DNA of 64,000 bases from Rhodospirillaceae bacterium (GCA_018674495.1 JABHAA010000026.1:84075-148074), one strand, 5' to 3'; positions 41 to 33,330 are shown, counted from the first letter of the stretch. The notes: generated from the sequence alone by a model not told the origin. Numbers and translations: made by a program.

Positions 41-856
41 TCACCACGCCGTCCGGCCGCCGTCAATGGTCAGGCACGCGCCGGTCATATAGCTGGATGC
101 ATCCGAAATCAGGAACGCGACCGCAGATTTGTATTCGTTCACATCGGCCATGCGGCCCATGGGGATCAGGTTTGTGAGGCGCTCCACGAAGGCATCATCC
201 TGGCCGTTATGGACGCCGCCCGGCACCAGCGCATTGGCGCGCACGCCTTGGTCCGCCCAATAGGTGGCCAGGTACCGGGTGAGACCGATGAGCCCGGTTT
301 TAACCACTGAATAGGTGACCGGCTTTACCGGCTGCTCGGCATCACGCCTGCCGTCTTCCCGGTATAGCCTCTGGTCCGGCGCTATAACGCCAAGATCGGA
401 CGAGATGTTCAAGATAACGCCGCTGCCCGCGTCGGCCATGGCGGCGCCGAAGACACGCGCGCACAAAAAGGCGCCCGTAAGCCCAACCGCGATATCGGCA
501 TTCCAAACCTCCATGGAAAAATTTTCCAGGCGGGAGAATTCCGTCCCGCCACCATCTTCCATCTTGGGATTGTTGGCGGCGTTGTTGATCAACGCATCAA
601 TGCGCCCAAACTCGGCCATGAGTGTGCAACCCATATCGGCAACGCGCGCATCGTCGGTGATGTCCAGCTTAAAGCCCCTTGCGCCGCCGCCGATCGCCTC
701 GGCCGCCGCCAGCGCGCCCGCCTCGTCGATGTCGAGAAGAACCGGAATGCCGCCAAGCTCAGCCGCCGCCTCGGCGTGCTTTTGGCCCAAAAGTCCGGCG
801 CCGCCGGTGATCGCCACAACGCGGCCGGTCAGATCAAACTTGTCCAGGGCACTCAT
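41..856 (-). CDS. SDR-family oxidoreductase (sugar / nucleotide-sugar dehydrogenase-reductase type)
   Basis: 271-aa ORF with Rossmann TGGAGLLG (TGxxGxxG), NNAA and catalytic YSVVK (YxxxK). Overlaps the upstream gene by 4 nt. Confidence 0.85.
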   Translation of the reverse strand: MSALDKFDLTGRVVAITGGAGLLGQKHAEAAAELGGIPVLLDIDEAGALAAAEAIGGGARGFKLDITDDARVADMGCTLMAEFGRIDALINNAANNPKMEDGGGTEFSRLENFSMEVWNADIAVGLTGAFLCARVFGAAMADAGSGVILNISSDLGVIAPDQRLYREDGRRDAEQPVKPVTYSVVKTGLIGLTRYLATYWADQGVRANALVPGGVHNGQDDAFVERLTNLIPMGRMADVNEYKSAVAFLISDASSYMTGACLTIDGGRTAW

Positions 857-1602
857 GAATAATTTTCCTGCAAATATTCAAACACGGCGCCTCCAAAATC
901 CTCTTTGAAAAATTCAAGTTTTCGAAAATCCGCCTCGACATCGACCTCGCCGCAATCGGGTGTCTCGAACCCGATGACGCGATCTCCGTAGGTAACGTTT
1001 TGTTCCAAGATAACGCTGGAACGCACCACATCTACATATCCCTGACCGGTATAGGTGGCGGCAAAACCTTGGCGCGGGTTATTGGCAGCTTCGGTATCGG
1101 CACCGGGACCCACGCCCAGGGGCATAAGATATCCATCCTGCATTTCAAAATTTTTCCAGGCGCTTTCCGGCATTTTGAAAACCGAGCGGAGGCCGGTTGC
1201 ATCGGGTGCCGCCTTCAGCCTGGCGACCGCCATATCGATCAAGGCGGGATCGCGCAAAGGCGTGGTCGGGCGAATTTGAACCACAAATTCCGGCACAAAC
1301 TCTTTTTCATCGCGCAACCATTCAATGGCATGGCGGATGACGGGGTAATCGGTCGCCGTATCGCTGGAAAATTCGGCCGGGCGCATGAACGGCACCTCGG
1401 CGCCATATTTGCTCCCGATGGCGGCGATCTCTTCCGAATCGGTGCTTAAGATTGTGCGCTCAATCGATTGCGCCATGTTCGAGGCGGCGACGGACCAAGC
1501 CAGCAAAGGATGACCGCCAAGATCGCGGATGTTCTTGCCGGCGACCCCCTTGGAGCCGCCGCGCGCCTGTATCAATGCAATCACTTCGCATGCGCCGGTC
1601 AT
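853..1602 (-). CDS. Acylneuraminate (nonulosonate) cytidylyltransferase family, NeuA-like CMP-sugar synthetase
   Basis: 249 aa. N-terminal IQARGGSKGVAGKNI matches the ARxGSKxxxxKN signature of the CMP-NeuAc synthetase family. Sits in an operon with a NeuB-like synthase. Confidence 0.8.
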   Translation of the reverse strand: MTGACEVIALIQARGGSKGVAGKNIRDLGGHPLLAWSVAASNMAQSIERTILSTDSEEIAAIGSKYGAEVPFMRPAEFSSDTATDYPVIRHAIEWLRDEKEFVPEFVVQIRPTTPLRDPALIDMAVARLKAAPDATGLRSVFKMPESAWKNFEMQDGYLMPLGVGPGADTEAANNPRQGFAATYTGQGYVDVVRSSVILEQNVTYGDRVIGFETPDCGEVDVEADFRKLEFFKEDFGGAVFEYLQENYS

Positions 1603-1606
1603 GATA

Positions 1607-2425
1607 TCAGTTCAATAAATCGCCATATCGGGATTGCAGCCAGGCCAGTTGGGAGCGGAATATTGCGATGCCTTCATCGTCCCGATAGGCCTGCATGATC
1701 AACGGACCCTGATAGTCCGAAGCCGCCAGCCAGTTGAACACCGCATCGAAATCACAATCGCCGGCGCCAAGCTCCACCGGGCCGCCGCCAAGAGCGCGAT
1801 CCTTGATGTGAATATCGGTGATGCGCGTACCGTACGCGCTGAGCTCTTCGCCGGCATCGAAGCCCAGCGACGCGGAATTGCCCGTATCGTAATTGACGGT
1901 GACCGAATCCGATCCGATCCGGTCCAACAGCCCGGCAAACTCGGCCGGGCCGAGATCGGTTTCCAGCGATAGGTTTAGGCCCCGACTTGCCGCCACCGGC
2001 GCCGCATCAGCCATGACCGCAACAAATTCGGCCGCATCCTTTTCGCCCGACAGGCTGGATTGATCGACGCAGGGGACAACGATGTCGCGGGCGCCGATAA
2101 TGGCGGCGCTGTCCATCAGCCGTTCCAGAACCCGGCGCGCCGCATCGGTGCGGTGCAATGGCGCTTCCATAAAATAGTCGGCGCAAATACTGATGACCGA
2201 AACGCCCGATTGGCTCGCTGTCGCTTTGATCGCAGCCGGATCGGCCAGCAACGGGTTTTCTTCGGCGCCTTCGAAATCGAGAATAAACTCGATCAATTCG
2301 ATGCCCGATTGCTTCGCGGCGGAAAACTCCGCTGCCCAATTGCCCGCCGGAAAGGCCTGATAGCGCCCTTGATATTTGGGTAAAAGGCGGCCCTGCATGG
2401 TGCCAATTTGAAAGCGGCCAAGCAT
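1607..2425 (-). CDS. Sugar-phosphate isomerase/epimerase, xylose-isomerase-like TIM barrel
   Basis: 272 aa. N-terminal GTMQGRLLP...QAFP..W..EF..A...G.E.IE pattern and length are typical of the AP-endonuclease-2 / hexulose-phosphate isomerase-like TIM-barrel family. Confidence 0.6.
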   Translation of the reverse strand: MLGRFQIGTMQGRLLPKYQGRYQAFPAGNWAAEFSAAKQSGIELIEFILDFEGAEENPLLADPAAIKATASQSGVSVISICADYFMEAPLHRTDAARRVLERLMDSAAIIGARDIVVPCVDQSSLSGEKDAAEFVAVMADAAPVAASRGLNLSLETDLGPAEFAGLLDRIGSDSVTVNYDTGNSASLGFDAGEELSAYGTRITDIHIKDRALGGGPVELGAGDCDFDAVFNWLAASDYQGPLIMQAYRDDEGIAIFRSQLAWLQSRYGDLLN

Positions 2426-2427
2426 AT

Positions 2428-4221
2428 CTAACCGGCCTTCGATATCAGCGTATCGCCGATAAGCAGATGATCGAGCCCGGAACTTTCGAAAGTGTGCATC
2501 GCGTCCTTGACGTTGTTGACGATGGGCTCGCCGTGCAGATTAAAGCTTGTGTTCAACAGGGCCGGAATTCCGGTAACTTTGCGGAACGCATCGATCAGTT
2601 CGTAATAGCCGTCGCTGCCGGTGCGCTCGACCAGTTGCGGGCGCACCGTCCGGTCATAGGGATGCGTGCCGGCAACGATCTGGTCGTACCCTTCGGGCTT
2701 GGTGTCGAAAGCGATCGCCATATACTTGGCGGCCAGGGCTTTCGGATTTTCGATATAGGCGTCGGCGTAGTCTTCCAGCAATGAAAATGCGAACGGCATC
2801 CAGAAATCACGGTTCTTAATGGCCTCGTTGATTTTCTGCACCGATTCCCGGCGCGAAGGATCGGCAAGAATTGACCGGTTGCCAAGGGCGCGCGCGCCGA
2901 ACTCGCAGCGTCCGTTGAGGCGGGCGATAATGTCGCCGGCGGCCAACTTTTCGGCCACGTCTCCGGCGCTGACACCGTGGCTTACTTGATGGGTTTTTGC
3001 TATTCCGTCCCAATCGATGGAACCCAATTCTTCGTTGACGTTATAGCCCAGATACATGCTCTCCAAGGCCACGTTGCTTCCAGCGCCTTGATTGAGGTAA
3101 TAGCAGCCGCCGATTGGCAGGCTTTCGTCCGATGAGGATGCCGCCACCATGATGTCATCGACGCAATCCAGTTCCGACAACACCTTGTTCATCTTGATGT
3201 TCATGGAAATGCCGCCGCCAATGGCGAACCGGCGAAGCCCCGTTTGTTCGTGGATCGCGATCAATACACCGCAAGCGAGATCTTCGGTATATAGCTGAAC
3301 GGCGCCGGCGATGTTGTCGAACCGCTCATCGAGCCAAACCTCGCGCAGATAATTGTAAAGATCGGCGGGCCTTTGATCGTGCTGGATGCGCATGCCATCG
3401 GTGCGGTTGATGGGCTTGATCTTTTGGGCCGCCTTTTCCACATATTGCTGCTTGGCGTAGGGTGCCAATCCCATAACTTTAAACTCATGTTCATCGGGCC
3501 GCATGCCGAGATGCAGGGTGGCAAATTTGTAAACATGGCCGATATCGTTTTGATCGGATTCGCCGATTAGCGACAGCGCGTCATCCTTGGCCAGCCAGAC
3601 CGTTTGATTGCGCCCGTCCCCCCAGCCATCGAGGATAACCACCGCCACATCCTGGCCCCGGGTTGGCCCCGAAAAGTAAGAATAATGGGCGTGACAAGAA
3701 TGGTGGTCGATAAATTCAATCTGGCTTTCCGCAAGGCCGAGATAATTGGCCAGCGTGCGGCGCCGCTCATTGGTCCAGCTATCGACAGCGGCGGCGGGAT
3801 CGTCGAGAATTTCATCGGTCAGGAACGAATAATCGAACACCGGGTCGGCGTGCGCAAACTTATCGTCATCGCGCAGCCAGCGCAGGTAATCCAATCCGTC
3901 CTCGCCGCGCATTTTCCTGGCGTGATAGCGTTCGCCGTAATAGTCGTGGTAATCGCGCAAGCTATAGGTCGGCGTGACTTTCGCTTTCACTTCCCAGGGA
4001 TGTTCGTAAATCGTCGTATAGGCGGCCGCCGTCAGATCGGAGCCTTCAATGGCGGCCTCTTTGAGGCAAAAATCGATGGCTCGGGCGGGAAATCCGGTCT
4101 CGTTTTTTTGGCGGGTAAAGCGTTCTTCCTGCGCCGCCCCGACAACGACGCCATCGACCATAATCGCAGCCGAAGCGTTATAGCCCACATGGACACAAAG
4201 ATATGATTGAGATTGAGGCAT
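2428..4221 (-). CDS. NodU/CmcH-family carbamoyltransferase
   Basis: 597 aa. N-terminal GYNASAAIMVDGVVVGAAQEERFTRQKNETGFP (ASKHA-like carbamoyltransferase N domain) and C-terminal LLNTSFNLHGEPIV (carbamoyltransferase C domain). Confidence 0.85.
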   Translation of the reverse strand: MPQSQSYLCVHVGYNASAAIMVDGVVVGAAQEERFTRQKNETGFPARAIDFCLKEAAIEGSDLTAAAYTTIYEHPWEVKAKVTPTYSLRDYHDYYGERYHARKMRGEDGLDYLRWLRDDDKFAHADPVFDYSFLTDEILDDPAAAVDSWTNERRRTLANYLGLAESQIEFIDHHSCHAHYSYFSGPTRGQDVAVVILDGWGDGRNQTVWLAKDDALSLIGESDQNDIGHVYKFATLHLGMRPDEHEFKVMGLAPYAKQQYVEKAAQKIKPINRTDGMRIQHDQRPADLYNYLREVWLDERFDNIAGAVQLYTEDLACGVLIAIHEQTGLRRFAIGGGISMNIKMNKVLSELDCVDDIMVAASSSDESLPIGGCYYLNQGAGSNVALESMYLGYNVNEELGSIDWDGIAKTHQVSHGVSAGDVAEKLAAGDIIARLNGRCEFGARALGNRSILADPSRRESVQKINEAIKNRDFWMPFAFSLLEDYADAYIENPKALAAKYMAIAFDTKPEGYDQIVAGTHPYDRTVRPQLVERTGSDGYYELIDAFRKVTGIPALLNTSFNLHGEPIVNNVKDAMHTFESSGLDHLLIGDTLISKAG

Positions 4222-4230
4222 TATGATCTG

Positions 4231-4992
4231 CTAAAAGCCTGTGGTTTGTCCGCCGTCTACCACGAGATCAGTGCCGACGATAAAACTCGCATCGGGTGAA
4301 CACAGAAATGCGGCCGCATCGGCAACTTCGCGGACGGTGCCAAACCGTTTCAAGGGAACCGTTCTATCGATCAAATCATCGATTGCCTTCGGATCCTTGG
4401 ATCGCCGCGTCGCCCAGCGTCCGCCATCGAATAGGATATTTCCAGGGCTGATCATATTGACGCGAACGCCAAAAGGCGCTAGTTCGCGGGCCATGGCCTT
4501 CATGGCATGGCGCAATCCAGCCTTGCCGGCGCCGTAGGCGATGGGCGCGCCGATGGCCTCGATACCGGCGATCGAGCCGATAAATAACAAAACCCCCGAC
4601 CCCCGATCCTTCATGTCCGTTGCCAAGTGCCGCGCCAGGCGAAACGGTCCGCCGAGATTGGCGGCGATCAGCCGATCCCATTCACCGTCCGAGGTTTGAA
4701 ACCCAGGGGCCGTGTCGGTGGCGCCGAAATTGATCACGGCTATATCCACCGGGCCGGCGCCGGCCACGATTTCCAGAGCCTGGTCCTGATCGGACAAATC
4801 ACCCTGAAGGGCGGTCACCGGACGGTCGAATTTATCTTGCAGACGGGATTGGGCAGCGTCCAGATCGGCCCCGGTGCGCCCCGTCAATATCAGGCCCCCG
4901 CCAACTTCGGCAAATCGCTCCGCAATCGCAAAGCCGATGCCCCGGGACGAGCCGGCCACCAGGATGCGCTTGCCGCCCAAATCTGTGCTCAA
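4231..4992 (-). CDS. SDR-family oxidoreductase
   Basis: 253 aa with GSSRGIGFAIA glycine-rich loop and YGAGK catalytic Y-x3-K. Overlaps the upstream VOC gene by 4 nt. Confidence 0.8.
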   Translation of the reverse strand: MSTDLGGKRILVAGSSRGIGFAIAERFAEVGGGLILTGRTGADLDAAQSRLQDKFDRPVTALQGDLSDQDQALEIVAGAGPVDIAVINFGATDTAPGFQTSDGEWDRLIAANLGGPFRLARHLATDMKDRGSGVLLFIGSIAGIEAIGAPIAYGAGKAGLRHAMKAMARELAPFGVRVNMISPGNILFDGGRWATRRSKDPKAIDDLIDRTVPLKRFGTVREVADAAAFLCSPDASFIVGTDLVVDGGQTTGF

Positions 4993-5438
4993 CGCTGAAC
5001 GCCCAAAAGTTCGACCAGTTCAATTATGACGCCATCGGGGTCATGGCAGTAGGCGACCAGAACCGGATCATCGGGACTTTCGAGGGGGGCGCTCTTGAAG
5101 GTGATATCAAGTTTGCTCCGCCGGTCATAAATCCCGCCCAAGCCGGAAACCGTCAATGCGAAGTGCGGACGGCCAGGCTCCGACGCCGACGCGTCGGCGC
5201 CCGGAGCCGATGCATGGGAGCGGTATTGCAGCAATTCTAGCTTGGAGCCATCGGGCGCCTCAAGCAGCACGATATCCACCTCGGCGTCTTCCAGACCAAC
5301 CAGCTCCGAGATGTAATCCCCGGACTGCCCGCGGCGTTCCCGAACAAGGCGATATCCAAGTGCCCTGCAATAGAAGCGCATGGAGCGCTCCAGGTCGCTG
5401 ACGGTAATGCCGATATGGCGGAATGAAGGTGTGCTCAT
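4989..5438 (-). CDS. VOC (glyoxalase/bleomycin-resistance/dioxygenase fold) family protein
   Basis: 149 aa. N-terminal FRHIGITVSDLERSMRFYCRALGY is the typical first beta-alpha-beta module of VOC proteins. Confidence 0.7.
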   Translation of the reverse strand: MSTPSFRHIGITVSDLERSMRFYCRALGYRLVRERRGQSGDYISELVGLEDAEVDIVLLEAPDGSKLELLQYRSHASAPGADASASEPGRPHFALTVSGLGGIYDRRSKLDITFKSAPLESPDDPVLVAYCHDPDGVIIELVELLGVQR

Positions 5439-5445
5439 ACGCCGC

Positions 5446-6288
5446 TCAGCGCATCGCCGTTTCGATTGGCATCAGCTTTTCGCGGACGGCGCGTTCGCCA
5501 TCGGACAGGATTTTCACACCATCGCCAAAGGCAGTTTCGATCAGGCGAATACCATCGACCAGCCTCCGAAAACCGACAAGCTCCACCGAGGCGGCCTGGT
5601 CCGAGCCATACATGGCCCGGTCCAGCGTAATATGGCGTTCGATGGACGAAATGCCGATTGCCGCGGCGGCCATGGATATGACAATGCCGGTTTCATGACC
5701 GCTATAACCCACGTCGCATCCATAGCGATCGCGTAAGGTCTGGATAACGTTCAAATTGGCGTCCCTATCGGGCATCGGATACTGGCTGTTGCAATGCATC
5801 AGCTCGAACGGGCATCCGGCTTTGCGGAAAATTTCCACGGCCGCATCGATTTCCTCCAGCTCGGACATGCCGGTAGAAATGAAGGTGTGCTTTTTCTCTT
5901 CGGCGATCATTTGCAACAAAGCGTGATTTATAAGCTGGGCCGATGCCACCTTGTTATAGCGGCCTTCATATTGGCGCAAAAATTCCTGCGCCTCCAAATC
6001 CCACGCCGATGCGAACCAGGCAATCCTGTGCTCCTGGCAGCAGCGCTCGATCTCTGCAAATTCCGCCTCGCCAAATTCCAGCCCTTCTTTCTGGGCGCGC
6101 TGGGTCGTACCCCACGGGCTTTCGCGCGTTTGAGCGAGATAATCCGCGTTGTAAACCTTATCGATGGAGCGTTTCTGAAACTTGACCGCATCGGCGCCGC
6201 AATCGGCGGCACCGCTGATCAATTGCTTTGCGGTGTCGATATCGCCGTTATGATTGATACCAATTTCAGCGATAATAAATATTGCCAT
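5446..6288 (-). CDS. NeuB-family (N-acylneuraminate / ulosonate-phosphate) synthase, lacking the C-terminal SAF domain
   Basis: 280 aa. IIAEIGINHNGDIDTAKQLI..A..CGADAVKFQ is the canonical NeuB N-terminus. The protein ends right after the TIM barrel, about 60 aa shorter than NeuB proteins that carry the SAF/antifreeze-like domain. Confidence 0.85.
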   Translation of the reverse strand: MAIFIIAEIGINHNGDIDTAKQLISGAADCGADAVKFQKRSIDKVYNADYLAQTRESPWGTTQRAQKEGLEFGEAEFAEIERCCQEHRIAWFASAWDLEAQEFLRQYEGRYNKVASAQLINHALLQMIAEEKKHTFISTGMSELEEIDAAVEIFRKAGCPFELMHCNSQYPMPDRDANLNVIQTLRDRYGCDVGYSGHETGIVISMAAAAIGISSIERHITLDRAMYGSDQAASVELVGFRRLVDGIRLIETAFGDGVKILSDGERAVREKLMPIETAMR

Positions 6289-6315
6289 AATGTTCGGTCC
6301 TGAAAGCGTTAAGTT

Positions 6316-6786
6316 TTACAGTTGAAAATAACCGTCAATAAGCTCACGGATCACACCGTAGCCGCCCTCCGCTCGGGTGATGTGATGGGCGACGGCGCGA
6401 ATACTGGCATGAGCGTCGGCCGGCGCAATGGCGTGGCCAACCAGCGCCATTACGCCTGAATCGTTAATATCGTTGCCGACAAAGACGGCATCGGCCAACG
6501 AATAGTGATGTTCCGCCGCATATTTTTTGAGGACGGCAGCCTTGTCGTTGAGCCCCGAGATGCAAGGAATTCCAAGCTTGGCGGCGCGCGCCGCGACCAC
6601 CGGATTTTTTTCCATGCTCAAGATGATTTGCGAGGCGCCGGCGGCCTTCAGCATACCGATCGCAAGGCCATCGCCGCGATGAACCATAACCGATTCTAGC
6701 CCGTCTTCGCGAACCATGACCCGGTTGTCGGTCATGACGCCGTCGAAGTCGTAACAGATGACGGATATTTCAGATATTGGGATAAT
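6316..6786 (-). CDS. KdsC-like HAD-superfamily ulosonate-phosphate phosphatase (start codon uncertain, probably non-canonical)
   Basis: The listed ORF (6316-6735) has HAD motif IV (GNDINDSG). The HAD nucleophile motif DFDGV(M)TDN lies in frame immediately upstream of the first ATG. That upstream stretch has no ATG/GTG/TTG before the in-frame stop at 6802-6804, so I extended the gene to the ATT at 6786. Confidence 0.65.
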   Translation of the reverse strand: MIPISEISVICYDFDGVMTDNRVMVREDGLESVMVHRGDGLAIGMLKAAGASQIILSMEKNPVVAARAAKLGIPCISGLNDKAAVLKKYAAEHHYSLADAVFVGNDINDSGVMALVGHAIAPADAHASIRAVAHHITRAEGGYGVIRELIDGYFQL

Positions 6787-6832
6787 GGCGGGATCCGTTT
6801 TTTAGGGCCATAGCGTTTTTGCGGGGACCAGG

Positions 6833-6853
6833 CAAGCTACCGCAGCCCGGGTG
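6833..6853 (-). promoter_or_regulatory. ops/JUMPStart-like element in the leader of the nonulosonate operon
   Basis: The minus strand reads CACCCGGGCTGCGGTAGCTTG. The last 12 nt match the E. coli ops GGCGGTAGCGTG at 10/12. It shares 18/21 nt with the copy at 33264-33284. It lies between the predicted promoter (6947-6974) and the gene start (~6786). Confidence 0.5.
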
Positions 6854-6931
6854 AAAGCACTCATCCGCAGCATCGCACAAAGGCCTGAATAGCTACACTC
6901 GGGAAGGCATAAAGGCCCAATTTCCCAGCAT

Positions 6932-6975
6932 GTTCACGCTGCGAACACTATAGCGTTCAATCTGTGAACGTCAAG
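6932..6975 (-). promoter_or_regulatory. Sigma70-like promoter with two overlapping palindromic operators
   Basis: On the minus strand: -35 TTGACG (6974-6969), 16-nt spacer, -10 TATAGT (6952-6947). Palindromes are GTTCAAtctGTGAAC (6955-6969, in the spacer) and GTTCACgctGCGAAC (6932-6946, at the start-site region). The same architecture is at 34515-34557. Confidence 0.55.
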
Positions 6976-11717: not shown

Positions 11718-12584
11718 TCACCGGTCTCGGCAAAGTGTCAGCACGGTAATCTCCGCCGGCGCATTGAAGCGCACGGGTAATATCGAGACTCCGGCGCCGC
11801 GGCTGGTGAAACCAAGCATATTACCGATCTTCCACGCCCCGACATCACGGATTGCGCCATCATGCAAGTTCAAGTTCAAAGGGTGCCCGCCCGGCAGGGC
11901 CACTTGGCCGCCATGGGTATGGCCACAGAGGTAAAGTCCGTAACCGGCCGCCTCCGCTTCGTTTTCAATTCCAGGCGAATGCACCAGCGCAATTTTAAAA
12001 CCTTGCGGCGTGTCTTTAAGCACCCCGGACGCAGCCGGCGTATAATAAGAATGCACATCGTCTAATCCGGTTATAAAAATTTGGCTATTCCCACGGGCTA
12101 GACTTACCGTCTCATTGACCAGGAAGGTTACTCCCAATTTTTCCAAGGCCGGAATGAGCCGGAGACTGTCGTGATTTCCGAGAATGGCAAAGATGCCGTC
12201 GGGCGCGGTGATATGCGGCAAAAGCCGTTCGACAGAAGCTACCGGCTGATCCAACTGGTAAACATGGCGGCCCTGGATATCACCGGTAATTACGCATAGA
12301 TCAGCGGCAACATTTTTTGCAATTTTGCAAATCGCGTCGTCGATGCCCGCTATCGTATCGAAATGTGGATCACTGATTTGCAGCAATCTGTATCCGTCGA
12401 ATTCTTCCGGCAAATGCTCAAAGCTAAGATCAATCTCGGTCAGCTTTATATTCAGCGCATTTCGAGTACCAAGTTTTATAATTCCAGTGACGCGCAAGAG
12501 GCCAAGAAACACCCAATAGCCAAAGCCCAGCAGGCTGTGGCGCCACATGGGCAGAGAATGTTCGCGGCTGCGCGCTTCCTCCAC
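11718..12584 (-). CDS. Calcineurin-like metallophosphoesterase, membrane-anchored
   Basis: 288 aa with motifs ISDPHFD, GDIQG, LGNHD and CGHTHGGQV, plus an N-terminal hydrophobic helix. Confidence 0.8.
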   Translation of the reverse strand: MEEARSREHSLPMWRHSLLGFGYWVFLGLLRVTGIIKLGTRNALNIKLTEIDLSFEHLPEEFDGYRLLQISDPHFDTIAGIDDAICKIAKNVAADLCVITGDIQGRHVYQLDQPVASVERLLPHITAPDGIFAILGNHDSLRLIPALEKLGVTFLVNETVSLARGNSQIFITGLDDVHSYYTPAASGVLKDTPQGFKIALVHSPGIENEAEAAGYGLYLCGHTHGGQVALPGGHPLNLNLHDGAIRDVGAWKIGNMLGFTSRGAGVSILPVRFNAPAEITVLTLCRDR

Positions 12585-12681
12585 TTTGGCGCGCGCCGCC
12601 AGCCACTCTTCTCTCCGGCCATCCGAATGAGGCGAATTGCGTGGTTCTATAATCGCTGTCTGCCTGGCGGGTTCCGTGACC

Positions 12682-13668
12682 TTAATTTTCGAGATCCAAA
12701 TTTTGATTGGCGCCGGTTACGCCTTTTTTCTCATGAACAAAAAATTTGCGCATATATTTTTTAAAGCCGAAATCGTGGTCGCTTAAATGAATGTTCTGCC
12801 CCTTCTCCCAGGCAACATAGGCCGATTTCAACCAGCGTTGATCTTCGACCATGGCCAGATGGCGGATCACGCTTTTGAAGGCGACGGTGGCTATCAATCT
12901 GATAATCGGGTTGGGATGGTAGCTGTTGATGGTGATGGTATATTGGGAAACTTGGTGGCTGATCGGGCGGACGAAAATCTGCCACTGCGCCTTGGCGACC
13001 ACATCGTGATATTCGCTGCAAAAGGGGTGGACGGTAACCTCGACCTGGTTTTCGTTGATCCGGTATTTGAAATGCTTTTCATCCTCGCTGAGGATTTCCG
13101 GCGTATAACTCGTTTTCAACGGGTTCTTGCGGCCAAAAAATTTCCGGTAGAGTCCATAGAAATCATAAAAATAGGTGTGATAGGCATGATGGGGAAAGTC
13201 CATGGAACTGTTCATGGCCAGATAGAACGGCACCTCATAGGGAACCGAATTGATCAGACAGCGCTCGGGAATTTCATCGAGAATGAAAGATTTGGCCCGC
13301 TCAAATCCATCCGCCGATCCCGGGTAAACGAATACCATATTGCCGCGCGAATAGGTCTGATAGGACTGCAGGGCGCAATCTGGCTTGTTGCGGGCGAGCG
13401 GCGCATCAAGCAGCGCGCCGTCTTTTAAATCGAACGTCCAGCCATGGAAACCGCAACTAACCTTGCCGCCGGTTATTTTGCCTTGATCCAGCGGCAATCC
13501 GTAATGGGGGCAGAAATTTTGATAGCATTTCGGATCACCATCGTTCCAAAAAAGGATGAGATCCCGGCCCCAAAGGGTAAAGGCGTACAACGATTGACGT
13601 TTCAATGCGGAACGGGTGATAATTCCGTATAAAAATTTGGCATAATCGTCTTTGCTGAAATTAAACAT
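12682..13668 (-). CDS. Rieske [2Fe-2S] domain non-haem oxygenase-like protein
   Basis: 328 aa with Rieske ligands CPHYG...(17 aa)...CGFHGW (CxH...CxxH) in the N-terminal domain and a catalytic-type C-terminal domain of unknown specificity. Confidence 0.75.
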   Translation of the reverse strand: MFNFSKDDYAKFLYGIITRSALKRQSLYAFTLWGRDLILFWNDGDPKCYQNFCPHYGLPLDQGKITGGKVSCGFHGWTFDLKDGALLDAPLARNKPDCALQSYQTYSRGNMVFVYPGSADGFERAKSFILDEIPERCLINSVPYEVPFYLAMNSSMDFPHHAYHTYFYDFYGLYRKFFGRKNPLKTSYTPEILSEDEKHFKYRINENQVEVTVHPFCSEYHDVVAKAQWQIFVRPISHQVSQYTITINSYHPNPIIRLIATVAFKSVIRHLAMVEDQRWLKSAYVAWEKGQNIHLSDHDFGFKKYMRKFFVHEKKGVTGANQNLDLEN

Positions 13669-13701
13669 CGCGGGTTTCTTTTATTAGATGCTAGGCCGCA
13701 T

Positions 13702-14724
13702 TTAATTGTTGAGGAGCGCGTTTGATCGCACCATATCCGATACCAGTTTGCCTGTCTTGTGCGCCACCGCAATATATCCTGTATATAATGGCGCCGTAAC
13801 GCTGACATGGTCGAGCTTGGCCCGGTACAGGAGCGCAAGCGCGCGCTCGAACCCAATGAGCCCAAGGATACGCGCGACAGGCATCGACTGCCTGTCGGTT
13901 TTCAATTCATCGATCGTCATTCCGTTGGTCGCACAATATTGGCGCACAAGGTCTGCAGTGTATATTGTTCCCGCAGACAAACGGTATACATAAAAACGCG
14001 AAGCAAGAAGGCGCGATAGCCAACGGGTATAATCCGCAAAATTAAAATAAAACATACCGCCCGGCTTGAGATTCCTCGCGATATTGGCGAACACCAACGA
14101 TGGATTTACAAAGTTGGACAATGTTGCAAAACACGTAATCGCATCGAATTGCCTATTGTCTCCCCACTGTCCTTCAAAATCTGCCACGGTTACATTAGCG
14201 CCAAAGGATTTACGCCCGTAATCGACCATGGTCGACGAGATGTCGATCCCCTCGGCTTTGAAACCATGGGCATTCAGAACATCCACAAACACCCCGTCAG
14301 AACAGCCGATATCCATTATTCTGGCTCCTTCGGGGAGCTCTTTTGATAGTCTTTTGGCGCGAACGGCGGCATTGATGCGGCGCAAAGGCTCTTCCTGAAT
14401 ATAGGAATCATAATTGACGAAGTCCTTATCCGCTTCGTCGCCGTCCGTTACATTGCTGAATTCCCAATATTCCTGCGACTCATAGACATGCGCGCGGGCT
14501 TCCTTGCTGAGCGAAGGGTTTTGAAATATTAAACCACAGTCATCGCAGCGGGAAAACTGGATCAGAAACCCCGCCATGCGGAAGGAATGGATTTCTTTAA
14601 GGTTTGAGCTGGAGCAAAAATCGCAACTGCGGTCGATAAAATCGAATTTGCCTGGGTCCAAAGAAACAAACGCGCGGCGCCCGCCGGCCGGGTCACCGCC
14701 AACATCACCAATATCACTACACAT
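13702..14724 (-). CDS. Class I SAM-dependent methyltransferase with N-terminal Cys4 zinc-ribbon-like segment
   Basis: 340 aa. CDFC...(24 aa)...CDDC, then SAM motif I IMDIGCSDG and an acidic residue after beta-2 (EGIDIS). Confidence 0.75.
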   Translation of the reverse strand: MCSDIGDVGGDPAGGRRAFVSLDPGKFDFIDRSCDFCSSSNLKEIHSFRMAGFLIQFSRCDDCGLIFQNPSLSKEARAHVYESQEYWEFSNVTDGDEADKDFVNYDSYIQEEPLRRINAAVRAKRLSKELPEGARIMDIGCSDGVFVDVLNAHGFKAEGIDISSTMVDYGRKSFGANVTVADFEGQWGDNRQFDAITCFATLSNFVNPSLVFANIARNLKPGGMFYFNFADYTRWLSRLLASRFYVYRLSAGTIYTADLVRQYCATNGMTIDELKTDRQSMPVARILGLIGFERALALLYRAKLDHVSVTAPLYTGYIAVAHKTGKLVSDMVRSNALLNN

Positions 14725-14726
14725 AA

Positions 14727-16454
14727 TTACTCGGCGGCCACGGAATTGCTGATTTCATGCTCTTCTTGGGGGCTGGCGGCCATAGATGCGAACCCATCAA
14801 CCACTTTTTCGCCAAGCAGGCCATCGGCGGGCAGCCTGAATTGCTTTTCAACCAATGGGAATTTTTTGTGCCTTTTGAACAGGCTAAGGTGATATTTCGG
14901 ATCCAGCCGCTTCTTAAGCCACCAAATATAATTTTTTACATAGGTGGTCGCATCCGTATCGCGGGTCGCAATGGCAATGTCCAGAAGACTTATGAATAAA
15001 CGAAACGGCCCCATCCAGAAGATATTATAGGCCTTCCATTTCAGGAGAAGACGCTTGGAATTAGGCGAAAGAAAGCTCATCAGCCGCAGCATAACCCGGT
15101 AACCGTTCAAAAGCCGGAGACGGTCTTTGTCCAAGCCGACGGAGCCGCCGCTCATGTAGTTGTCATGAAAACCGTTGTCGATGCGGTCTACTTCATCAAT
15201 GTGAATTTCGCCTGCAGCCAAGCCGTGCTCGATCATTTCCGTTCCGGGCATATATTGCAGCATAAACGGCGCGATCCGGTAGCAATGCTTGAGCGGCACC
15301 AGAAACTCCGCAAACTCCATCAGTTCCACCTTGATGGAAGCCAGGGATTCTTCCGGCGTCGGCGGGCGGGTTGATCCGTCGGCCTCGCGAACGGGTAGCC
15401 TTGGAATCCCGAGGATATAATCAAACGCATAATCTTGGCCGACACTTTCAAGAATATCCGCTGCCGCGCGTATCTCATCATTGGTGTCGGGCCGGTTGAG
15501 AATGGTATTACGAATTTCCTCGTTCCAACATTCCACGCCGATCTGAATGGCAAAGCATCCTGCATCATGCATGGCACGAACCGCCCGCTCGCTCACCAGT
15601 TTCGGGTGCAGGAAGCAGCGGAATGGAACGCCGACTTCGCTCTTATATTTTGTGAAAAATTCTTCCATCCATTTCGCACTGCATGCCATGACGGGCTGGC
15701 GAAAATCAACCCAGGCTGAATTGTATTTTTCAACATGGACTTTCAGCTCGGCGATTAGAGAATCGACGGATCGTTCGCGCACGCGCGGACCCTTCAATTG
15801 GCGCGCATCCTCGGCCAGAAATGACAGAGAGCAGAAATTACAGGCGTAGGGGCAGCCACGGGACGGGCACGACAAATAGGAATTTTTCAACGGAACGTGC
15901 GGCGCAAACAATTCCTTATCGACCGGCGGCAATACATCCAAATCAGCAATCAACGGTCGGCGCGGTGTCTTGATAATCTCGTCATTTTCAAGCCGATACC
16001 AAATATTGGGTATGGTGTAGTCGATTTTCCCCGCTTCAATGCTATCGGCCAATTCGACGATGGCAAAGTCGCCTTCGCCCAGGCACACCATATCGACCGC
16101 GCCATCATCTTCGTTCAGAACCGCATCCGGCGCGGAATGGGGATGAATACCGCCAAAAATTACCGGCACGCTATAGTGCTTCTTCAGCTCCGCCGCTATA
16201 AGACGCATTTCGCGGTATTGAACCGTCTGCACATGGAAGCCGACCAGATCAGGTTTCAATTCGATAATATATTGGATCAGCTTCTTGCGCTGATCCAGAA
16301 GCTTCGCCGCCCAATCGATTTTGATGTAATTCTTGTCGTCGAACAAAGCCTGATCATAGGCCAGCTCAACTTCGTGCCCGCTCTCTTTGAGCTTCGCCGA
16401 TAAAGCCTGTAGGGCGATATTTTCCCAACCGATTGCGACCAGAACGCACTTCAT
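14727..16454 (-). CDS. B12-binding-domain radical SAM enzyme (class B), paralogue 1
   Basis: 575 aa. N-terminal Rossmann-like domain with VIFGGIHPHSAPD, then SRGCPYACNFCS (CxxxCxxC). Confidence 0.85.
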   Translation of the reverse strand: MKCVLVAIGWENIALQALSAKLKESGHEVELAYDQALFDDKNYIKIDWAAKLLDQRKKLIQYIIELKPDLVGFHVQTVQYREMRLIAAELKKHYSVPVIFGGIHPHSAPDAVLNEDDGAVDMVCLGEGDFAIVELADSIEAGKIDYTIPNIWYRLENDEIIKTPRRPLIADLDVLPPVDKELFAPHVPLKNSYLSCPSRGCPYACNFCSLSFLAEDARQLKGPRVRERSVDSLIAELKVHVEKYNSAWVDFRQPVMACSAKWMEEFFTKYKSEVGVPFRCFLHPKLVSERAVRAMHDAGCFAIQIGVECWNEEIRNTILNRPDTNDEIRAAADILESVGQDYAFDYILGIPRLPVREADGSTRPPTPEESLASIKVELMEFAEFLVPLKHCYRIAPFMLQYMPGTEMIEHGLAAGEIHIDEVDRIDNGFHDNYMSGGSVGLDKDRLRLLNGYRVMLRLMSFLSPNSKRLLLKWKAYNIFWMGPFRLFISLLDIAIATRDTDATTYVKNYIWWLKKRLDPKYHLSLFKRHKKFPLVEKQFRLPADGLLGEKVVDGFASMAASPQEEHEISNSVAAE

Positions 16455-17179
16455 GATCTTGTTCTCCGACGCGAGTGAATTTTCACGAAAAAATCAATCA
16501 TATCCCAAAATGTCCGCCACATCGTCCCATAGCGCGCCGAAGTTGGAATTCCATACATCCGGCGCCGCATTTGTGATGGTACCTCGGCAATAATTAACTT
16601 TTTATGCCGTGCTTTGACTAACAATTCAACCAGAAAGAAAATGCCAGTATATTCAATACTTATTCCGCCTCCGACAAATATTTCGCGGCGATAGGCTTGA
16701 ATCCAATTTACATCCGAAACACCAATATTGAATAAAATCGGGACCAGTATTCGATTGTAAATAAATGAAGCCGCATGGGCGACCGGATGATAGCCAACCC
16801 GCTCAACGCGCACGCCAACAACGATGTCGCAGATGCTCATCCTCGGGAGGTAAATTTCCAGCTCTTCCTTGGTGAGCGGATTATCGACGGGCATCAGGAT
16901 TATGAAATCTTTGGTCGCGTGGCCAGTGCCGGTTCGAAAGGCGCCGCCGATACCTTGGTTGGCGGAATGGTGAATGACGGTGATTGATGGCTCATTTTCG
17001 GTAAGGCTATCCGCGATGGCGCCGGTGGTGTCGATGCTGCAATCATTGACAATGACAATTTCCGATTCGATGCGAAGCGCCAACAAGGTTTCGCGAATGA
17101 TGGAAACTGCCTTCTCCAGAGTTTGCTCTTCGTTGTAGGCAGGAATCAGGATCGTGATTGAAGGATGGTGATCAACCAT
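16451..17179 (-). CDS. GT2-family glycosyltransferase, polyprenyl-phosphate sugar synthase (DPM1/GtrB/ArnC) type
   Basis: 242 aa with ITILIPAYNEE, VNDCSIDTT (DxD-type) and MPVDNP. Overlaps the rSAM gene by 4 nt. Confidence 0.8.
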   Translation of the reverse strand: MVDHHPSITILIPAYNEEQTLEKAVSIIRETLLALRIESEIVIVNDCSIDTTGAIADSLTENEPSITVIHHSANQGIGGAFRTGTGHATKDFIILMPVDNPLTKEELEIYLPRMSICDIVVGVRVERVGYHPVAHAASFIYNRILVPILFNIGVSDVNWIQAYRREIFVGGGISIEYTGIFFLVELLVKARHKKLIIAEVPSQMRRRMYGIPTSARYGTMWRTFWDMIDFFVKIHSRRRTRS

Positions 17180-18278
17180 AATATTCCGAGATGGCCCTTA
17201 CCACATTGTCGATTTGCCGATTCGAAATTTCCGGAAACATCGGCAGCGATAGAATTTGACTGGCCTGGGATTCTGCAACCGGGCAACTGCTTGGCCCAAA
17301 CCCAATATGCTCAAATGCCTGCTGCAGGTGAAACGGTATCGGATAGTGGACGCCTGATTGAATTTGCCGGCCATTCAGATGCTCGGACAACCCATCTCGG
17401 TCCTTAGCCAGGATGACGAACAAATGAAAGATGTGCCGTTCAATATCGCTCCGCTCGAATTTGGGCACGGTCACGGAGCCGACACCCTCCAACCCTTCAC
17501 AATACCGGCTAGCCGCCGCAAAACGTGCGCGGTTCCAGCCATCCAAATGATCCAGTTTCACATTCAACACGGCCGCCTGGATTGCGTCCAGCCGGCTATT
17601 GGTTCCCGCCAACTCGTGGAAATATTTCTTGGTGGAGCCATAATTTCGGAGCAGGCGCAACTTTTCCGCCAAAGCTTCATCGCTGGTGACGGCGAGGCCG
17701 CCATCGCCGAGCGCGCCCAAATTCTTGGACGGGTAAAAACTGAAACAGCCAATATCACCGATAGCGCCGGCAGAGCGGCCCTTGAATTTGGCCCCATGGG
17801 CCTGGGCGGCGTCTTCGATGATTTTCAATCCATGGGCCGTGGCAAAATCGGAAACGACATCCATGTCCATGACCTGCCCATACAAATGCACCGGCATGAT
17901 GGCCTTGGTACGCTTCGATACGCTGCGCCCGGCCGCGGCGATATCCATCAGGGAACTGTCGGCATCGATATCGACTGGCACCGGTATGGCGCCGACCATA
18001 TTTACCGCCAGCGCCGACGCTATGAAGGTATTGGCGGGAACAAGAACTTCGTCCCCGGGTCCGATTTCAAGGGCGCGGCAGGCAAGAAACAAAGCATCGG
18101 TTCCCGTCCCCATGCCTACGGCAAACTTTGATCCAACATATGAAGCAAATCGGTTTTCAAACTGCTCGACTGGGGCGCCGAGGATTAGCGATGCGCTGTC
18201 ACAAACATCCGATATGGCGCCTTCTAACGCGCCTTTAAGGTTGGCGTAGTTCGCCCGCAGATCTACAAATGGAATCAT
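17172..18278 (-). CDS. DegT/DnrJ/EryC1/StrS-family PLP-dependent sugar aminotransferase
   Basis: The family-typical N-terminus MIPFVDLRANY starts at the internal ATG 18278, 4 nt after the upstream stop. The PLP-lysine region is SFYPSKNLGALGDGG. The listed 412-aa ORF (to 18410) carries a spurious 44-codon extension. Confidence 0.85.
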   Translation of the reverse strand: MIPFVDLRANYANLKGALEGAISDVCDSASLILGAPVEQFENRFASYVGSKFAVGMGTGTDALFLACRALEIGPGDEVLVPANTFIASALAVNMVGAIPVPVDIDADSSLMDIAAAGRSVSKRTKAIMPVHLYGQVMDMDVVSDFATAHGLKIIEDAAQAHGAKFKGRSAGAIGDIGCFSFYPSKNLGALGDGGLAVTSDEALAEKLRLLRNYGSTKKYFHELAGTNSRLDAIQAAVLNVKLDHLDGWNRARFAAASRYCEGLEGVGSVTVPKFERSDIERHIFHLFVILAKDRDGLSEHLNGRQIQSGVHYPIPFHLQQAFEHIGFGPSSCPVAESQASQILSLPMFPEISNRQIDNVVRAISEYYG

Positions 18279-18282
18279 GTAT

Positions 18283-18798
18283 TTATTTTTCTCCGCGCCC
18301 GGTTCGGGTCGCAATTTCAACAGCATCCAGTTCCCGCAAAACCTGAGCGGGATTGCCCGCCACGACGGTAAAGGCCGGCACGTCCTTGGTAACCACGGCG
18401 CCGGCGCCAACTATCGCCCCTTCGCCAATTTCGAGACCAGCGAGGATGGTCGAGCCGGTTCCGATGGATGCAAAATTCTGGACCGTCGTTACCTCGCAAT
18501 TCCAGCTTCCATCTTCGGCCGATAACACCGACGGATACCGGTCATTGATGAAGGACACATTGTGGCCAATAAAAACGTCATCGCCGATTGCAATTTCAGA
18601 GCAAATAAAACTGTGGGACTGAACCCGCACCCGGTGGCCCAATGTCGCGCCGCGCTGGATTTCCACGAACGTGCCGATACGGCATCCGTCTCCGATTTTG
18701 CATCCGTACAGGTTTGCGTATCCGTGAACGATGACATCGCCACCAAAGACAACGTCGTCGGAAACGGTGCAATTGGGGCCTAGGCTGGGCGATGCCAT
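18283..18798 (-). CDS. Left-handed beta-helix (hexapeptide-repeat) sugar N-acetyltransferase, WbpD/WlbB-like
   Basis: 171 aa with successive hexapeptide repeats (IGDGCRIGTFVEI, IGDDVFIGHNVSFIND). Sits between an oxidoreductase and an aminotransferase. Confidence 0.75.
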   Translation of the reverse strand: MASPSLGPNCTVSDDVVFGGDVIVHGYANLYGCKIGDGCRIGTFVEIQRGATLGHRVRVQSHSFICSEIAIGDDVFIGHNVSFINDRYPSVLSAEDGSWNCEVTTVQNFASIGTGSTILAGLEIGEGAIVGAGAVVTKDVPAFTVVAGNPAQVLRELDAVEIATRTGRGEK

Positions 18799-18802
18799 AT
18801 AA

Positions 18803-19888
18803 TCAATTCACGGTTTGCAAGGCGCTGTTATTTGCAGAAGATTTATCCCCAGCCGACAATACAGCCGAAACATCGGCGGCGAAAACCGCAGAGGCGGGGT
18901 TTGGCTTGTCGTCAAGTATCAGATCAACAAATGCATCGGTTTCGCATCTGAGCGGCTCCACCACATGCACTTTCGGGCTAATGATATCGCCATCATTGAT
19001 CAGATACCGAAAGGCGCCGAAATCGGGCTCAATCGTATCGGCAACGCCAATACCTTTTTCGAACAGGCGCACCGGTTCCAGATTGTTCAGATCATCGAAA
19101 ATCGCGCGGGCCTTGCTGCCAACCAATTCCATGGTGCGCAATTTGTTGGCATCTACCCATGATACATGGATTTGACCGAGAACGCCGGATGGGTACTGCA
19201 AACTGATAAAGGCGACATCGGAATTTTCGGTGCCGAGCGGGTTTGATCCAACCACCGACACCTTATCCGGGCGTTCGCCCAACAGAAAATTCATGATTGC
19301 CACATCGTGCGCGGCCAAATCCCAGACGACATTCACGTCCTGGCGAACTAATCCCATATGGGTGCGCGTCGCCTTCATGTAATATAGCTTTCCAAGGCGA
19401 TCCGAACACATCAAATCCCTGAGCTTCAATATTCCGGCATTAAACAAAAACGTATATCCAATCATCAGTTGGACATCGTTTTCTTTCGCCGTCCGGTCAA
19501 GCGCCAATATCGTTTCCCCGTCAAAGGCCAACGGCTTTTCGCAAAAAACATGTTTGCCCGCTTCCAGGGCCTGGCGCGCGATCTCGGCATGGGAGGACGC
19601 GGGCGTCACGATGACCACGGCATCGATATCCGGATCACCGATTATGTCTCGGATATCCGAACAGCGCTTGAAATCGGCCCCAATTGTGGCGCCCAAATTT
19701 TCAAAGGCTTCTGGGCGCGCATCGCACACAGCGACCACATCGACCCGAGGATTTGAGGAAAAATTTCGCACCAAATTCGGTCCCCAATGACCAAGGCCGA
19801 TAACTCCAACTCGCAGTGACAAATTTTGTTCTCCCGTTATCGGGCCTTGAATTTTTGGGCTTCCGCCCAGCGGCACGGTACGGCCCAT
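18803..19888 (-). CDS. Gfo/Idh/MocA-family NAD(P) sugar oxidoreductase (nucleotide-sugar 3-dehydrogenase candidate)
   Basis: 361 aa with Rossmann VGVIGLGHWGPN and the EKP motif (FCEKPLA). The true start may lie downstream of 19888. Confidence 0.75.
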   Translation of the reverse strand: MGRTVPLGGSPKIQGPITGEQNLSLRVGVIGLGHWGPNLVRNFSSNPRVDVVAVCDARPEAFENLGATIGADFKRCSDIRDIIGDPDIDAVVIVTPASSHAEIARQALEAGKHVFCEKPLAFDGETILALDRTAKENDVQLMIGYTFLFNAGILKLRDLMCSDRLGKLYYMKATRTHMGLVRQDVNVVWDLAAHDVAIMNFLLGERPDKVSVVGSNPLGTENSDVAFISLQYPSGVLGQIHVSWVDANKLRTMELVGSKARAIFDDLNNLEPVRLFEKGIGVADTIEPDFGAFRYLINDGDIISPKVHVVEPLRCETDAFVDLILDDKPNPASAVFAADVSAVLSAGDKSSANNSALQTVN

Positions 19889-19966
19889 TCGAATTCTCGG
19901 ACCATAAACTGGCGATAAATGATTGTCACGATCAATGAGGGAATAGGCTAACGTCGAAGCCAGCCG

Positions 19967-21685: not shown

Positions 21686-21931
21686 ACCGGTTCACTACCC
21701 ATCATTTTAAAGGTGACTCTCATTAACGCCGCCAAAATTCTTGTCGCAATTTATATCCCATGCATCATTGTTTTTAATAGGTTTAAGAATCGTTTGCAAC
21801 CCATCGGTTATACCAAGGTAATGTAACAACGGTGCGCAAGTAACGCGGCGCACTGAATGTTTTTTCCAATCATTGCCGTCCCCGCTACTCATTGCCCCAA
21901 TCTACCAGCAGGCGGATTGACCGGCAATTAA

Positions 21932-23668: not shown

Positions 23669-23936
23669 ATTTTAGGCGGTCTTATTCAAGTAATTGCCAA
23701 AATTGGTTCGTACAAGCATCAACGCCGTAATCCATATGGGTTCAAATTCAGCAATCATTCGTGAATTCGGGTCAAAAATCATCTATCAGGCAATTTCAGC
23801 TGCAGATAATTCTTGGTATCAGGTTTCATGGCAAAATTCTAGCGCCCAAATTCACCAGCTATGCAGCCAAACTGGATAAAGCCTGGCCAAGCTGGAAAGT
23901 TCGGCATGAATATATTCAAATCTCAAAGATGCCGAT

Positions 23937-24467: not shown

Positions 24468-24525
24468 GCGCTGTTAGGCGGCGTCAATCCGACCGGTGAG
24501 TGCGCGCTCCGTTACCGAAGCGGTA

Positions 24526-29574: not shown

Positions 29575-29604
29575 GGAATCCTGCGCGGCTGGATTTTCCG
29601 GGCC

Positions 29605-31203: not shown

Positions 31204-31305
31204 TGGAATATTTATAAACTACCTTGGAACTGTCTATCAATTAAAAGGTCTGAGCCGGAATGCGCCCATGGTATCGCCAATCGAAAGCGCCCGGCCAATA
31301 GCCAA

Positions 31306-31336
31306 ACCATATCTTGTTCATAGAATGAACGTCAAG
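31306..31336 (-). promoter_or_regulatory. Sigma70-like promoter with palindromic operator upstream of the rSAM-4 operon
   Basis: On the minus strand: -35 TTGACG (31335-31330), 18-nt spacer, -10 TATGGT (31311-31306). A perfect palindrome GTTCATagaATGAAC (31316-31330) abuts the -35, the same layout as at 6955-6974 and 34537-34556. Confidence 0.5.
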
Positions 31337-31356
31337 GAATGAAAGCCTGGATTTCA

Positions 31357-33263: not shown

Positions 33264-33284
33264 CACGCTACCGCACGCCGGGTG
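33264..33284 (-). promoter_or_regulatory. ops/JUMPStart-like element directly downstream of the NusG-paralogue gene
   Basis: The minus strand reads CACCCGGCGTGCGGTAGCGTG. The last 12 nt match the E. coli ops GGCGGTAGCGTG at 11/12. It lies 24 nt upstream of the FemAB-like ATG. Confidence 0.55.
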
Positions 33285-33330
33285 CAACGGAACGAACCCG
33301 GCGGGCACAGTTTCCGCGTCTCGCCCGGCG

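Follow-up and report, generated by a model that had tools for sequence, protein, structure and literature searches.

A hairpin-associated ops-like element in alphaproteobacterial polysaccharide leaders, with a predicted rfaH-unlinked copy before a nonulosonate operon

Our analysis of a 64,000-nucleotide stretch of DNA from a Rhodospirillaceae bacterium (the window) identified two copies of an element that most likely is related to the E. coli ops/JUMPstart leader and has not been described before. One copy, termed site 1, precedes a nonulosonate operon. Its sequence and context indicate that it is quite probably a loading and pause site unlinked to rfaH, and that it represents a second ops-type site, belonging to an alphaproteobacterial version of the RfaH/ops/JUMPstart system. 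The other copy, termed site 2, resides directly after an rfaH-like gene and is a canonical copy of the family.

Two ops-like elements in one window

The features of site 1 and its operon are as follows.

6833..6853, minus strand: site 1, 21-nt conserved block CACCCGGGCTGCGGTAGCTTG, consisting of a hairpin 3' arm plus an ops-like core; rfaH-unlinked
6833..6844, minus strand: ops-like core of site 1, TGCGGTAGCTTG, ops positions 1-12
6834, minus strand: predicted pause base T11 of site 1, with G+1 at 6833
6846..6869, minus strand: degenerate stem-loop of site 1, UGCGGAU (6869-6863) against ACCCGGG (6852-6846)
6947..6974, minus strand: promoter-like site TTGACG-16-TATAGT (10/12)
6736..6940, minus strand: transcribed leader of the nonulosonate operon, with site 1, a 13-codon uORF and the start region of the KdsC-like gene
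41..6735, minus strand: operon 3' of site 1, encoding a KdsC-like HAD phosphatase, NeuB, VOC/glyoxalase, SDR and carbamoyltransferase, then a TIM-barrel protein, a CMP-type cytidylyltransferase and an SDR

The corresponding features of site 2 and its locus are as follows.

33264..33284, minus strand: site 2, CACCCGGCGTGCGGTAGCGTG, the rfaH-adjacent copy; its ops core, 33275..33264, is TGCGGTAGCGTG, with the predicted pause base T11 at 33265
33277..33302, minus strand: stem-loop of site 2, GCCGGGU (33302-33296) with ACCCGGC (33283-33277), seven standard pairs
33331..33840, minus strand: RfaH-like NusG paralogue, 169 aa from GTG
33837..34520, minus strand: MarR_EPS-type winged-helix regulator, with a 4-nt overlap with the rfaH-like start
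34527..34556, minus strand: promoter-like site TTGACG-18-TATGTT, 5' of the marR-like gene
11718..33239, minus strand: ~21.5 kb of same-strand polysaccharide genes 3' of site 2

A preliminary description of this DNA had reported the two 21-mers, identical at 18 of 21 positions, and had taken the repeat to exceed chance. Both sequences read back as claimed. When pattern CACCCGGNNTGCGGTAGCKTG was searched with up to three mismatches on both strands of the 64 kb, only these two sites were found, and in 100 dinucleotide shuffles the pattern had a mean of 0.01 matches, with no shuffle reaching two. The core GCGGTAGNNTG alone is likewise found only at sites 1 and 2 in the window (0.33 occurrences expected). 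Covariance model R1 assigns 49.9 bits to site 2, 39.4 bits to site 1 and 10.3 bits to the next match in the window; because both window copies are in its seed, these scores are partly circular. The same description had the copies as non-coding and oriented like their downstream genes, and both are indeed intergenic and on the same strand as those genes.

A candidate third copy, GGCGGTAGC at 43178-43186 (minus strand), is the only exact occurrence of that sequence in the window. It is without T11-G12 and without the hairpin, lies antisense to a plus-strand gene block, and corresponds to the 10.3-bit match in R1. It is most likely a chance match.

A family of elements in Alphaproteobacteria

Pattern CACCCGGNNTGCGGTAGCNTG, which has 18 fixed bases, was scanned over one genome per species (185,579 species). 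It matches at least 120 loci, compared with ~17 expected by our own arithmetic with uniform bases. Alphaproteobacteria account for at least 68 of the 80 titles listed, including Rhodospirillales, Hyphomicrobiales, Bradyrhizobium, Afipia and Ferrovibrio. Carriers that can be cultivated include Bradyrhizobium, Afipia, Nitrobacter and Paramagnetospirillum kuznetsovii (L004). Among the matches listed, positions that the pattern leaves free are conserved as well: T at -1 in 111/118, A after CACCCGG in 98/118, and a G-A-A-A-A tail after TG.

The layout of site 2, with the end of a same-strand rfaH-like gene 47-143 nt 5' of the element, recurs in 91 of the 120 loci listed, and the proteins encoded by these 91 genes are 32-56% identical to the RfaH-like protein of the window. 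Conservation past the core had been proposed earlier as a sign of function, and the excess of exact matches, together with their location directly behind rfaH-like genes, bears this out.

As a safeguard against circularity, a second set of 79 further loci was gathered by protein alone, by using an alignment of homologues. This alignment was needed, as a related-locus search with the single RfaH-like protein as query produced no loci. In the protein-anchored set, the element is found 47-102 nt (median 62) after the rfaH-like stop codon in 57 of 78 usable loci, and the spacing from CACCCG to GCGGTAG is free of indels in all 59 of 59 sequences. A MarR_EPS-like gene resides directly upstream of rfaH, on the same strand, in 72 of the 79 loci. 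The conserved unit thus has the order marR, rfaH, hairpin-ops, sugar genes, which suggests a conserved marR-rfaH two-regulator module heading alphaproteobacterial polysaccharide loci.

The first downstream genes overwhelmingly encode nucleotide-sugar or polysaccharide enzymes (39 epimerase/dehydratase and 33 Polysacc_synt_2, among others), and the next ORF starts a median of 41 nt downstream of the element. Intergenic placement of the family rests on the upstream rfaH stop codon and the downstream ORF start. A test based on open frames (stop-to-stop, at least 120 codons) placed 85 of the 120 listed motifs inside such frames, versus 95.5% of random 21-mers; this test carries no information, since spurious open frames abound in high-GC DNA.

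Some elements reside away from rfaH. About 24 of the 120 loci listed have no rfaH gene nearby, and six more are too near the edge of the locus to tell. Ten unlinked loci were examined, and in seven the downstream genes have Pfam matches. These unlinked copies precede genes for NeuB plus SAF (L033), UDP-GlcNAc 2-epimerase, PseB-like dehydratases, epimerase/dehydratase and GT1. Judged by its predicted gene context, site 1 is a member of this recurrent rfaH-unlinked class, with the same class of downstream genes. Sites 1 and 2 both fit the family pattern T-CACCCG-R-N2-TGCGGTAGC-N-TG with a complementary 5' arm, and both are located 5' of polysaccharide genes.

A relaxed regular expression detected no locus with multiple copies. 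The only extras found with the covariance model are a weak tandem copy in L132 (Bradyrhizobium retamae) and a divergent copy in L160. The former, at 3799-3846 (plus strand), scores 25.2 bits and lies ~240 nt after the first copy. The latter, at 2101-2146 (minus strand), scores 43 bits and is the sole copy of its locus, on the opposite strand upstream of rfaH in a divergent layout. About one quarter of the rfaH-like genes of the clade have no adjacent element (for example, in L148, L152, L166, L188, L189 and L193). Several of these element-less genes are followed directly by a gene resembling WecA/MraY-type transferases (HPNERS motif, by eye).

A conserved stem-loop upstream of the core

What is conserved past the ops core is CACCCG, which forms the 3' arm of a conserved stem-loop. 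A segment of the form YCCGGGTG(A), located 5' of T-CACCCGG, is nearly always complementary to it, with a loop that is mostly 8-10 nt (range 3-10). At least six of seven pairs are present in 99 of the 120 loci listed, compared with 15.6% of planted controls. Among the matches listed, substitutions opposite the two G's are to T (39 and 21 cases) and never to A, and the transition product A opposite the C's is rare (1-3 cases). Thus, wobble is tolerated on the sense strand only, which speaks for a hairpin in a single strand and against a duplex operator. The stem-loop is most plausibly formed by nascent RNA.

Covariation was assessed in the protein-anchored set plus the two copies of the window, by using a covariance-model-based alignment of segments cut at the 5' arm. 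This alignment superseded one made by MAFFT on equal-length segments, which left the 5' arms out of register. In the covariance-model alignment, 84% of cells pair. The outer pair 3-42 is CG in 26 sequences, UG in 15, UA in 7 and GC in 3, and none of 500 shuffles reaches the observed covariation score. Covariation is confined to two outer pairs; the five inner pairs cannot covary because CACCC never varies. Conservation of the 3' arm exceeds what pairing needs: CACCCG is invariant, the 5' arm is loose, and at site 1 the 5' arm is very loose. Apart from its pairing, the upstream sequence is probably itself recognized.

The inverted repeat CCGGGTGA...TCACCCGG might instead be a duplex operator for a dimeric regulator, such as the MarR_EPS protein, with the ops core being secondary. 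In favor of this are the palindromic form of the repeat, the presence of a MarR_EPS gene together with rfaH in nearly all protein-anchored loci (72/79), and the invariant 3' arm, which suits recognition by a protein. However, a duplex operator would not need G-U wobble to be kept on the sense strand only, its two arms would here be very unequally conserved (to the extent that site 1 is barely palindromic), and its loop would vary from 3 to 10 nt. Moreover, neither copy of the element overlaps a promoter, with site 1 being ~90 nt past its promoter and site 2 following a gene, and a separate GTTCAC-N3-GTGAAC-type palindrome at the site 1 promoter is a better candidate for a MarR operator. We consider the operator explanation highly improbable.

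Similarly, the element could act as RNA without the RfaH-like protein, either as a processing or stability hairpin or as an antiterminator of the EAR/epsC type. Its stem does pair on the sense strand, and it resides in 5' UTRs of polysaccharide operons, like EAR (PMC2864571). Against this, conservation is strongest not in the stem but in 12 unstructured nucleotides that are identical to the ops core of the DNA, and linkage of the element to rfaH-like genes is tight in both sets (91/120 loci listed; 57/78 protein-anchored). In addition, no Rfam family matches the element other than JUMPstart, and then only in the core. A role as RNA alone is thus improbable, and we favor an ops-type site that is accompanied by a nascent-RNA hairpin.

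The leader of the nonulosonate operon

The 318 nt that separate the stop of an FG-GAP gene (7054) from the KdsC-like/NeuB operon contain site 1, which lies ~94 nt 3' of the promoter-like site 6974..6947. The earlier placement of both copies between a promoter and a start codon is strictly correct here, and applies to site 2 only loosely (see below).

The stem of site 1 is poor. Five of the seven model pairs are standard and the mismatches are G-G and A-C; RNAfold did not predict the hairpin, and its folding was no better than that of shuffles (z = +0.37). Site 1 also has no GAAAA tail of the kind common after TG. The T-CACCCGG block is nonetheless intact despite the poor stem, which argues that the sequence itself matters.

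These properties raise the question of whether site 1 is a decaying relic, that is, an unused leader cassette that was copied from the rfaH locus or acquired horizontally with the sugar operon. The degraded hairpin, the absent tail and the lower R1 score (39.4 versus 49.9 bits) are in keeping with decay. However, all 12 core positions and all nine invariant or near-invariant bases of T-CACCCGG-G are intact, some of which a neutral relic would probably have lost. The leader is also transcribed, unlinked copies recur before the same gene classes in other genomes, and the sequence of the region is identical in three independent assemblies, although all three represent one population. An identical locus is carried by GCA_018667695.1. 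A relic is therefore quite improbable, and we continue to regard site 1 as a candidate loading and pause site.

Evidence of transcription comes from marine metatranscriptome contigs that are identical to the window. They span 6004-6923, crossing site 1 and reaching into the KdsC-like gene and NeuB, and none of the identical contigs covers 6941-7400. This coverage fits a transcription start near the predicted promoter and a transcribed site 1 leader, with the qualification that the contigs are assembled and of low depth, do not place the 5' end and might include DNA.

Two inverted repeats read in the sequence at 6932-6975, GTTCAC-N3-TTGAAC and GTTCGC-N3-GTGAAC, overlap the promoter-like site. 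Repeats of this GTTCAC-N3-GTGAAC type are plausible as putative operators for the MarR_EPS protein.

RNAfold predicts another structure at 6825-6851 (minus strand), in which CCGGGC pairs with a downstream GCCUGG and encloses the ops core in a loop. The sequence CC-Y follows TG in ~30% of family members and GAAAA in most; by eye, neither variant is associated with rfaH-linked or rfaH-unlinked status. An alternative structure is possible in the subset with CC-Y after TG.

The start of the KdsC-like HAD phosphatase gene is unusual. No canonical start codon is found 5' of its catalytic DFDGV motif, and the first ATG, GTG or TTG of the frame (6735, minus strand) falls after the nucleophile Asp. In-frame ATT (6786), ATC and ATA codons are present within 6735-6811 (minus strand). 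A 13-codon uORF extends from ATG 6811 to TGA 6770 (minus strand), and a +1 shift would be needed for it to join the HAD frame. This anomaly is not an assembly error, because it is identical in the three assemblies and in an RNA contig. It could reflect a non-AUG start, a programmed frameshift or a fixed pseudogene.

The rfaH-adjacent copy

Site 2 begins 47 nt after the gene for the RfaH-like NusG paralogue, in a 92-nt gap that extends from the stop codon of that gene (33331-33333) to ATG 33239 of a FemAB/GNAT-like gene. No promoter-like site is found in the 92-nt gap, and the nearest one on this strand is 34556..34527. Thus, site 2 lies between promoter and start codon only in the loose sense that the promoter precedes the marR-like gene. 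The site 2 stem-loop is also the centroid structure predicted by RNAfold.

The genes of 11718..33239 encode FemAB/GNAT-like, deacetylase, B12-rSAM, aldolase, cytidylyltransferase, Gfo/Idh/MocA and other proteins, and three larger gaps among them may contain internal promoters. RNA contigs cover 34280-34504 at the marR-like gene but not 34575-34756. They are sparse across site 2, and one ends at 33298, within the hairpin.

The RfaH-like protein

The best NCBIfam match of the 33331-33840 product is RfaH (TIGR01955), with a score of 119.7 bits that is below the curated cutoff of 144.5; UpxY (76.5), LoaP (50.2) and NusG score lower. When a profile of relatives was compared with the PDB, E. coli RfaH (5OND) was matched with E=7e-24 and NusG with 1e-16. 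On the basis of these profile matches, the product is RfaH-like, and not a certified equivalog. The true start of the ORF is likely ATG 33828, which yields MEKW... as in relatives.

In E. coli RfaH, the side chains that contact ops include K10, H20, R23 and R73 (PMC5995543). At these four positions, Q, N, R and I form the family consensus, and Q, N, N and I are found in the protein of the window. Residues Q24, T72, G74 and V75 are kept. E48 is not conserved, being K in the window protein and A in the family consensus. An AlphaFold2 model, built with a 24-sequence alignment, has a C-terminal domain that is a beta-barrel KOW (strands 123-163) without the autoinhibitory alpha-hairpin (mean pLDDT 88.5; C-terminal block 82-88). 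The model represents one predicted state and is compatible with fold switching. The RfaH-like protein may therefore differ in how it reads the same ops loop and in its regulation, which could for instance involve delivery in cis from the neighboring gene.

Relationship to known systems

The textbook example of a DNA signal in the non-template strand that loads a transcription factor is ops, with RfaH as the factor. Within the ops consensus, GGCGGTAGnnTG, bases 3-8 (CGGTAG) are needed for RfaH, and T11-G12 are needed for pausing at U11 (PMC5995543). The element fits the consensus pause, and ops complexes backtrack 2-3 nt in vitro (PMC5995543).

The preliminary description had read the window elements as ops-like, and the comparison supports this reading. 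Both copies match 11 of 12 consensus positions; positions 2-9, 11 and 12 are identical, including contact bases 3-8 and T11-G12, and the only mismatch, in both copies, is T for G at position 1. The pause features G-10, Y-1 and G+1 are shared, as is a sense-strand position in the transcribed, promoter-proximal leader of a long envelope-polysaccharide operon. An RfaH-family protein is encoded in the same genome, and indeed in the window. Unlike E. coli ops, the element has an invariant T-CACCCG block upstream at a fixed distance, and its cognate protein lacks K10, H20 and R73.

The JUMPstart element reportedly goes back to Hobbs & Reeves 1994. Gammaproteobacterial JUMPstart elements contain a conserved stem-loop (Weinberg et al. 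2010, PMC2864571). JUMPstart (RF01707) resembles the present element in having a stem-loop directly 5' of GCGGUAGCGUG in the 5' UTRs of polysaccharide genes, and in the distance of 12 nt from the end of the stem to U11/T11. As a positive control, the E. coli rfb leader scores 60 bits in the Rfam JUMPstart model, with a 5-bp stem whose end is 12 nt 5' of U11. The stem of the alphaproteobacterial element has as its final base the A after CACCCGG, 12 nt 5' of T11; in members without that pair, the distance is 13 nt. The two stems are unrelated in sequence, however, being CUGGU/GCCAG (5 bp) in JUMPstart and CCGGGUG(A)/(U)CACCCGG (7-9 bp) here, and the former is gammaproteobacterial whereas the latter is found in Alphaproteobacteria. 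RF01707 aligns with the window copies only in the core, with 13.0 bits at site 1 and 11.9 bits at site 2 (gathering score 35). A stem-loop 5' of the core with 12-nt spacing is present in the family and at site 2; site 1 has five of seven pairs and no predicted fold. Thus, the earlier label of "JUMPStart-like" is appropriate for the stem-loop architecture and spacing, and not in the sense of membership in RF01707.

Other systems share the proximity of factor and target. The IncX-plasmid PrfaH system (PMC11880322) resembles the window locus in combining an RfaH paralogue, its own ops-like site and a target operon in one transcription unit. In that system, ops resides in the 5' UTR before prfaH, which is followed by virB (PMC11880322), whereas the order here is marR, rfaH, hairpin-ops and polysaccharide genes, in addition to unlinked copies such as site 1. 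UpxY (Bacteroides), TaA (Myxococcus) and LoaP (Firmicutes) are also encoded at the head of their presumed target operons. They differ in that the UpxY and LoaP models score below RfaH for the window protein, and no use of ops is known for these factors (PMC7593976).

A 2020 survey in mBio classified 18% of rfaH genes as alphaproteobacterial, and noted that the mode of recruitment is known only for E. coli RfaH (PMC7593976). This survey was the only item found in a full-text literature search on RfaH, ops or JUMPstart in Alphaproteobacteria, which produced no description of the element.

Proposed mechanism

From homology and geometry, we infer the following sequence of events at site 1. Transcription would start at the promoter-like site 6974..6947, just upstream of where RNA contigs begin, and RNA polymerase would pause at T11-G12 of TGCGGTAGCTTG in the leader. 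In the transcription bubble, the non-template strand could then present a G-G-T-A loop, closed by C3:G8, that is identical to that of E. coli ops. By homology, the RfaH-like protein (33331-33840) is expected to bind the GGTA loop and to stay on the polymerase, and the modified enzyme would cross the nonulosonate operon, which exceeds 6.7 kb, without premature termination. Site 1 would in this way bring the nonulosonate operon into the rfaH regulon in trans.

The T-CACCCGG block would supply the 3' arm of a stem-loop in the nascent RNA, with the foot of the stem 12-13 nt behind the pause base, as in the geometry of JUMPstart. A stem located 12-13 nt behind the RNA 3' end occupies the position where exit-channel hairpins act, and the stem-loop most likely stabilizes the paused complex or limits backtracking.

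A second, rather unlikely version is that the marR-rfaH-hairpin-ops order constitutes a cis-loading device in which the factor also reads CACCCG as upstream duplex. The lead ribosome would release fresh RfaH-like protein while polymerase is held at the hairpin-backed ops pause. The factor, perhaps lacking autoinhibition of the E. coli type, would go preferentially to its own operon, and copies like site 1 would be served by spill-over. That autoinhibition might be absent is suggested by the beta-barrel KOW in the model and by the absence of E48. For E. coli RfaH, protection of a further 6-7 base pairs on the upstream side has been reported. The factor may contact the invariant CACCCG (-20 to -15) as upstream duplex DNA, and this contact could make up for the missing contacts of K10, H20 and R73.

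Conclusions

Conservation of the ops core in Alphaproteobacteria is base for base, despite a protein that is without three of the E. coli contact residues. A clade-specific stem-loop, located as far from the pause base as in JUMPstart, suggests that nascent-RNA hairpins have a shared role at ops pauses, a role that, to our knowledge, is without explanation in E. coli as well. A gene-adjacent copy and an unlinked copy are found in one genome. Taken together, these features offer a system for studying how ops recognition evolved. The element also provides a simple signature with which RfaH regulons, consisting of surface polysaccharide and nonulosonic-acid operons, may be predicted in Rhodospirillales, Hyphomicrobiales, Bradyrhizobium, Nitrobacter and many uncultured marine lineages.
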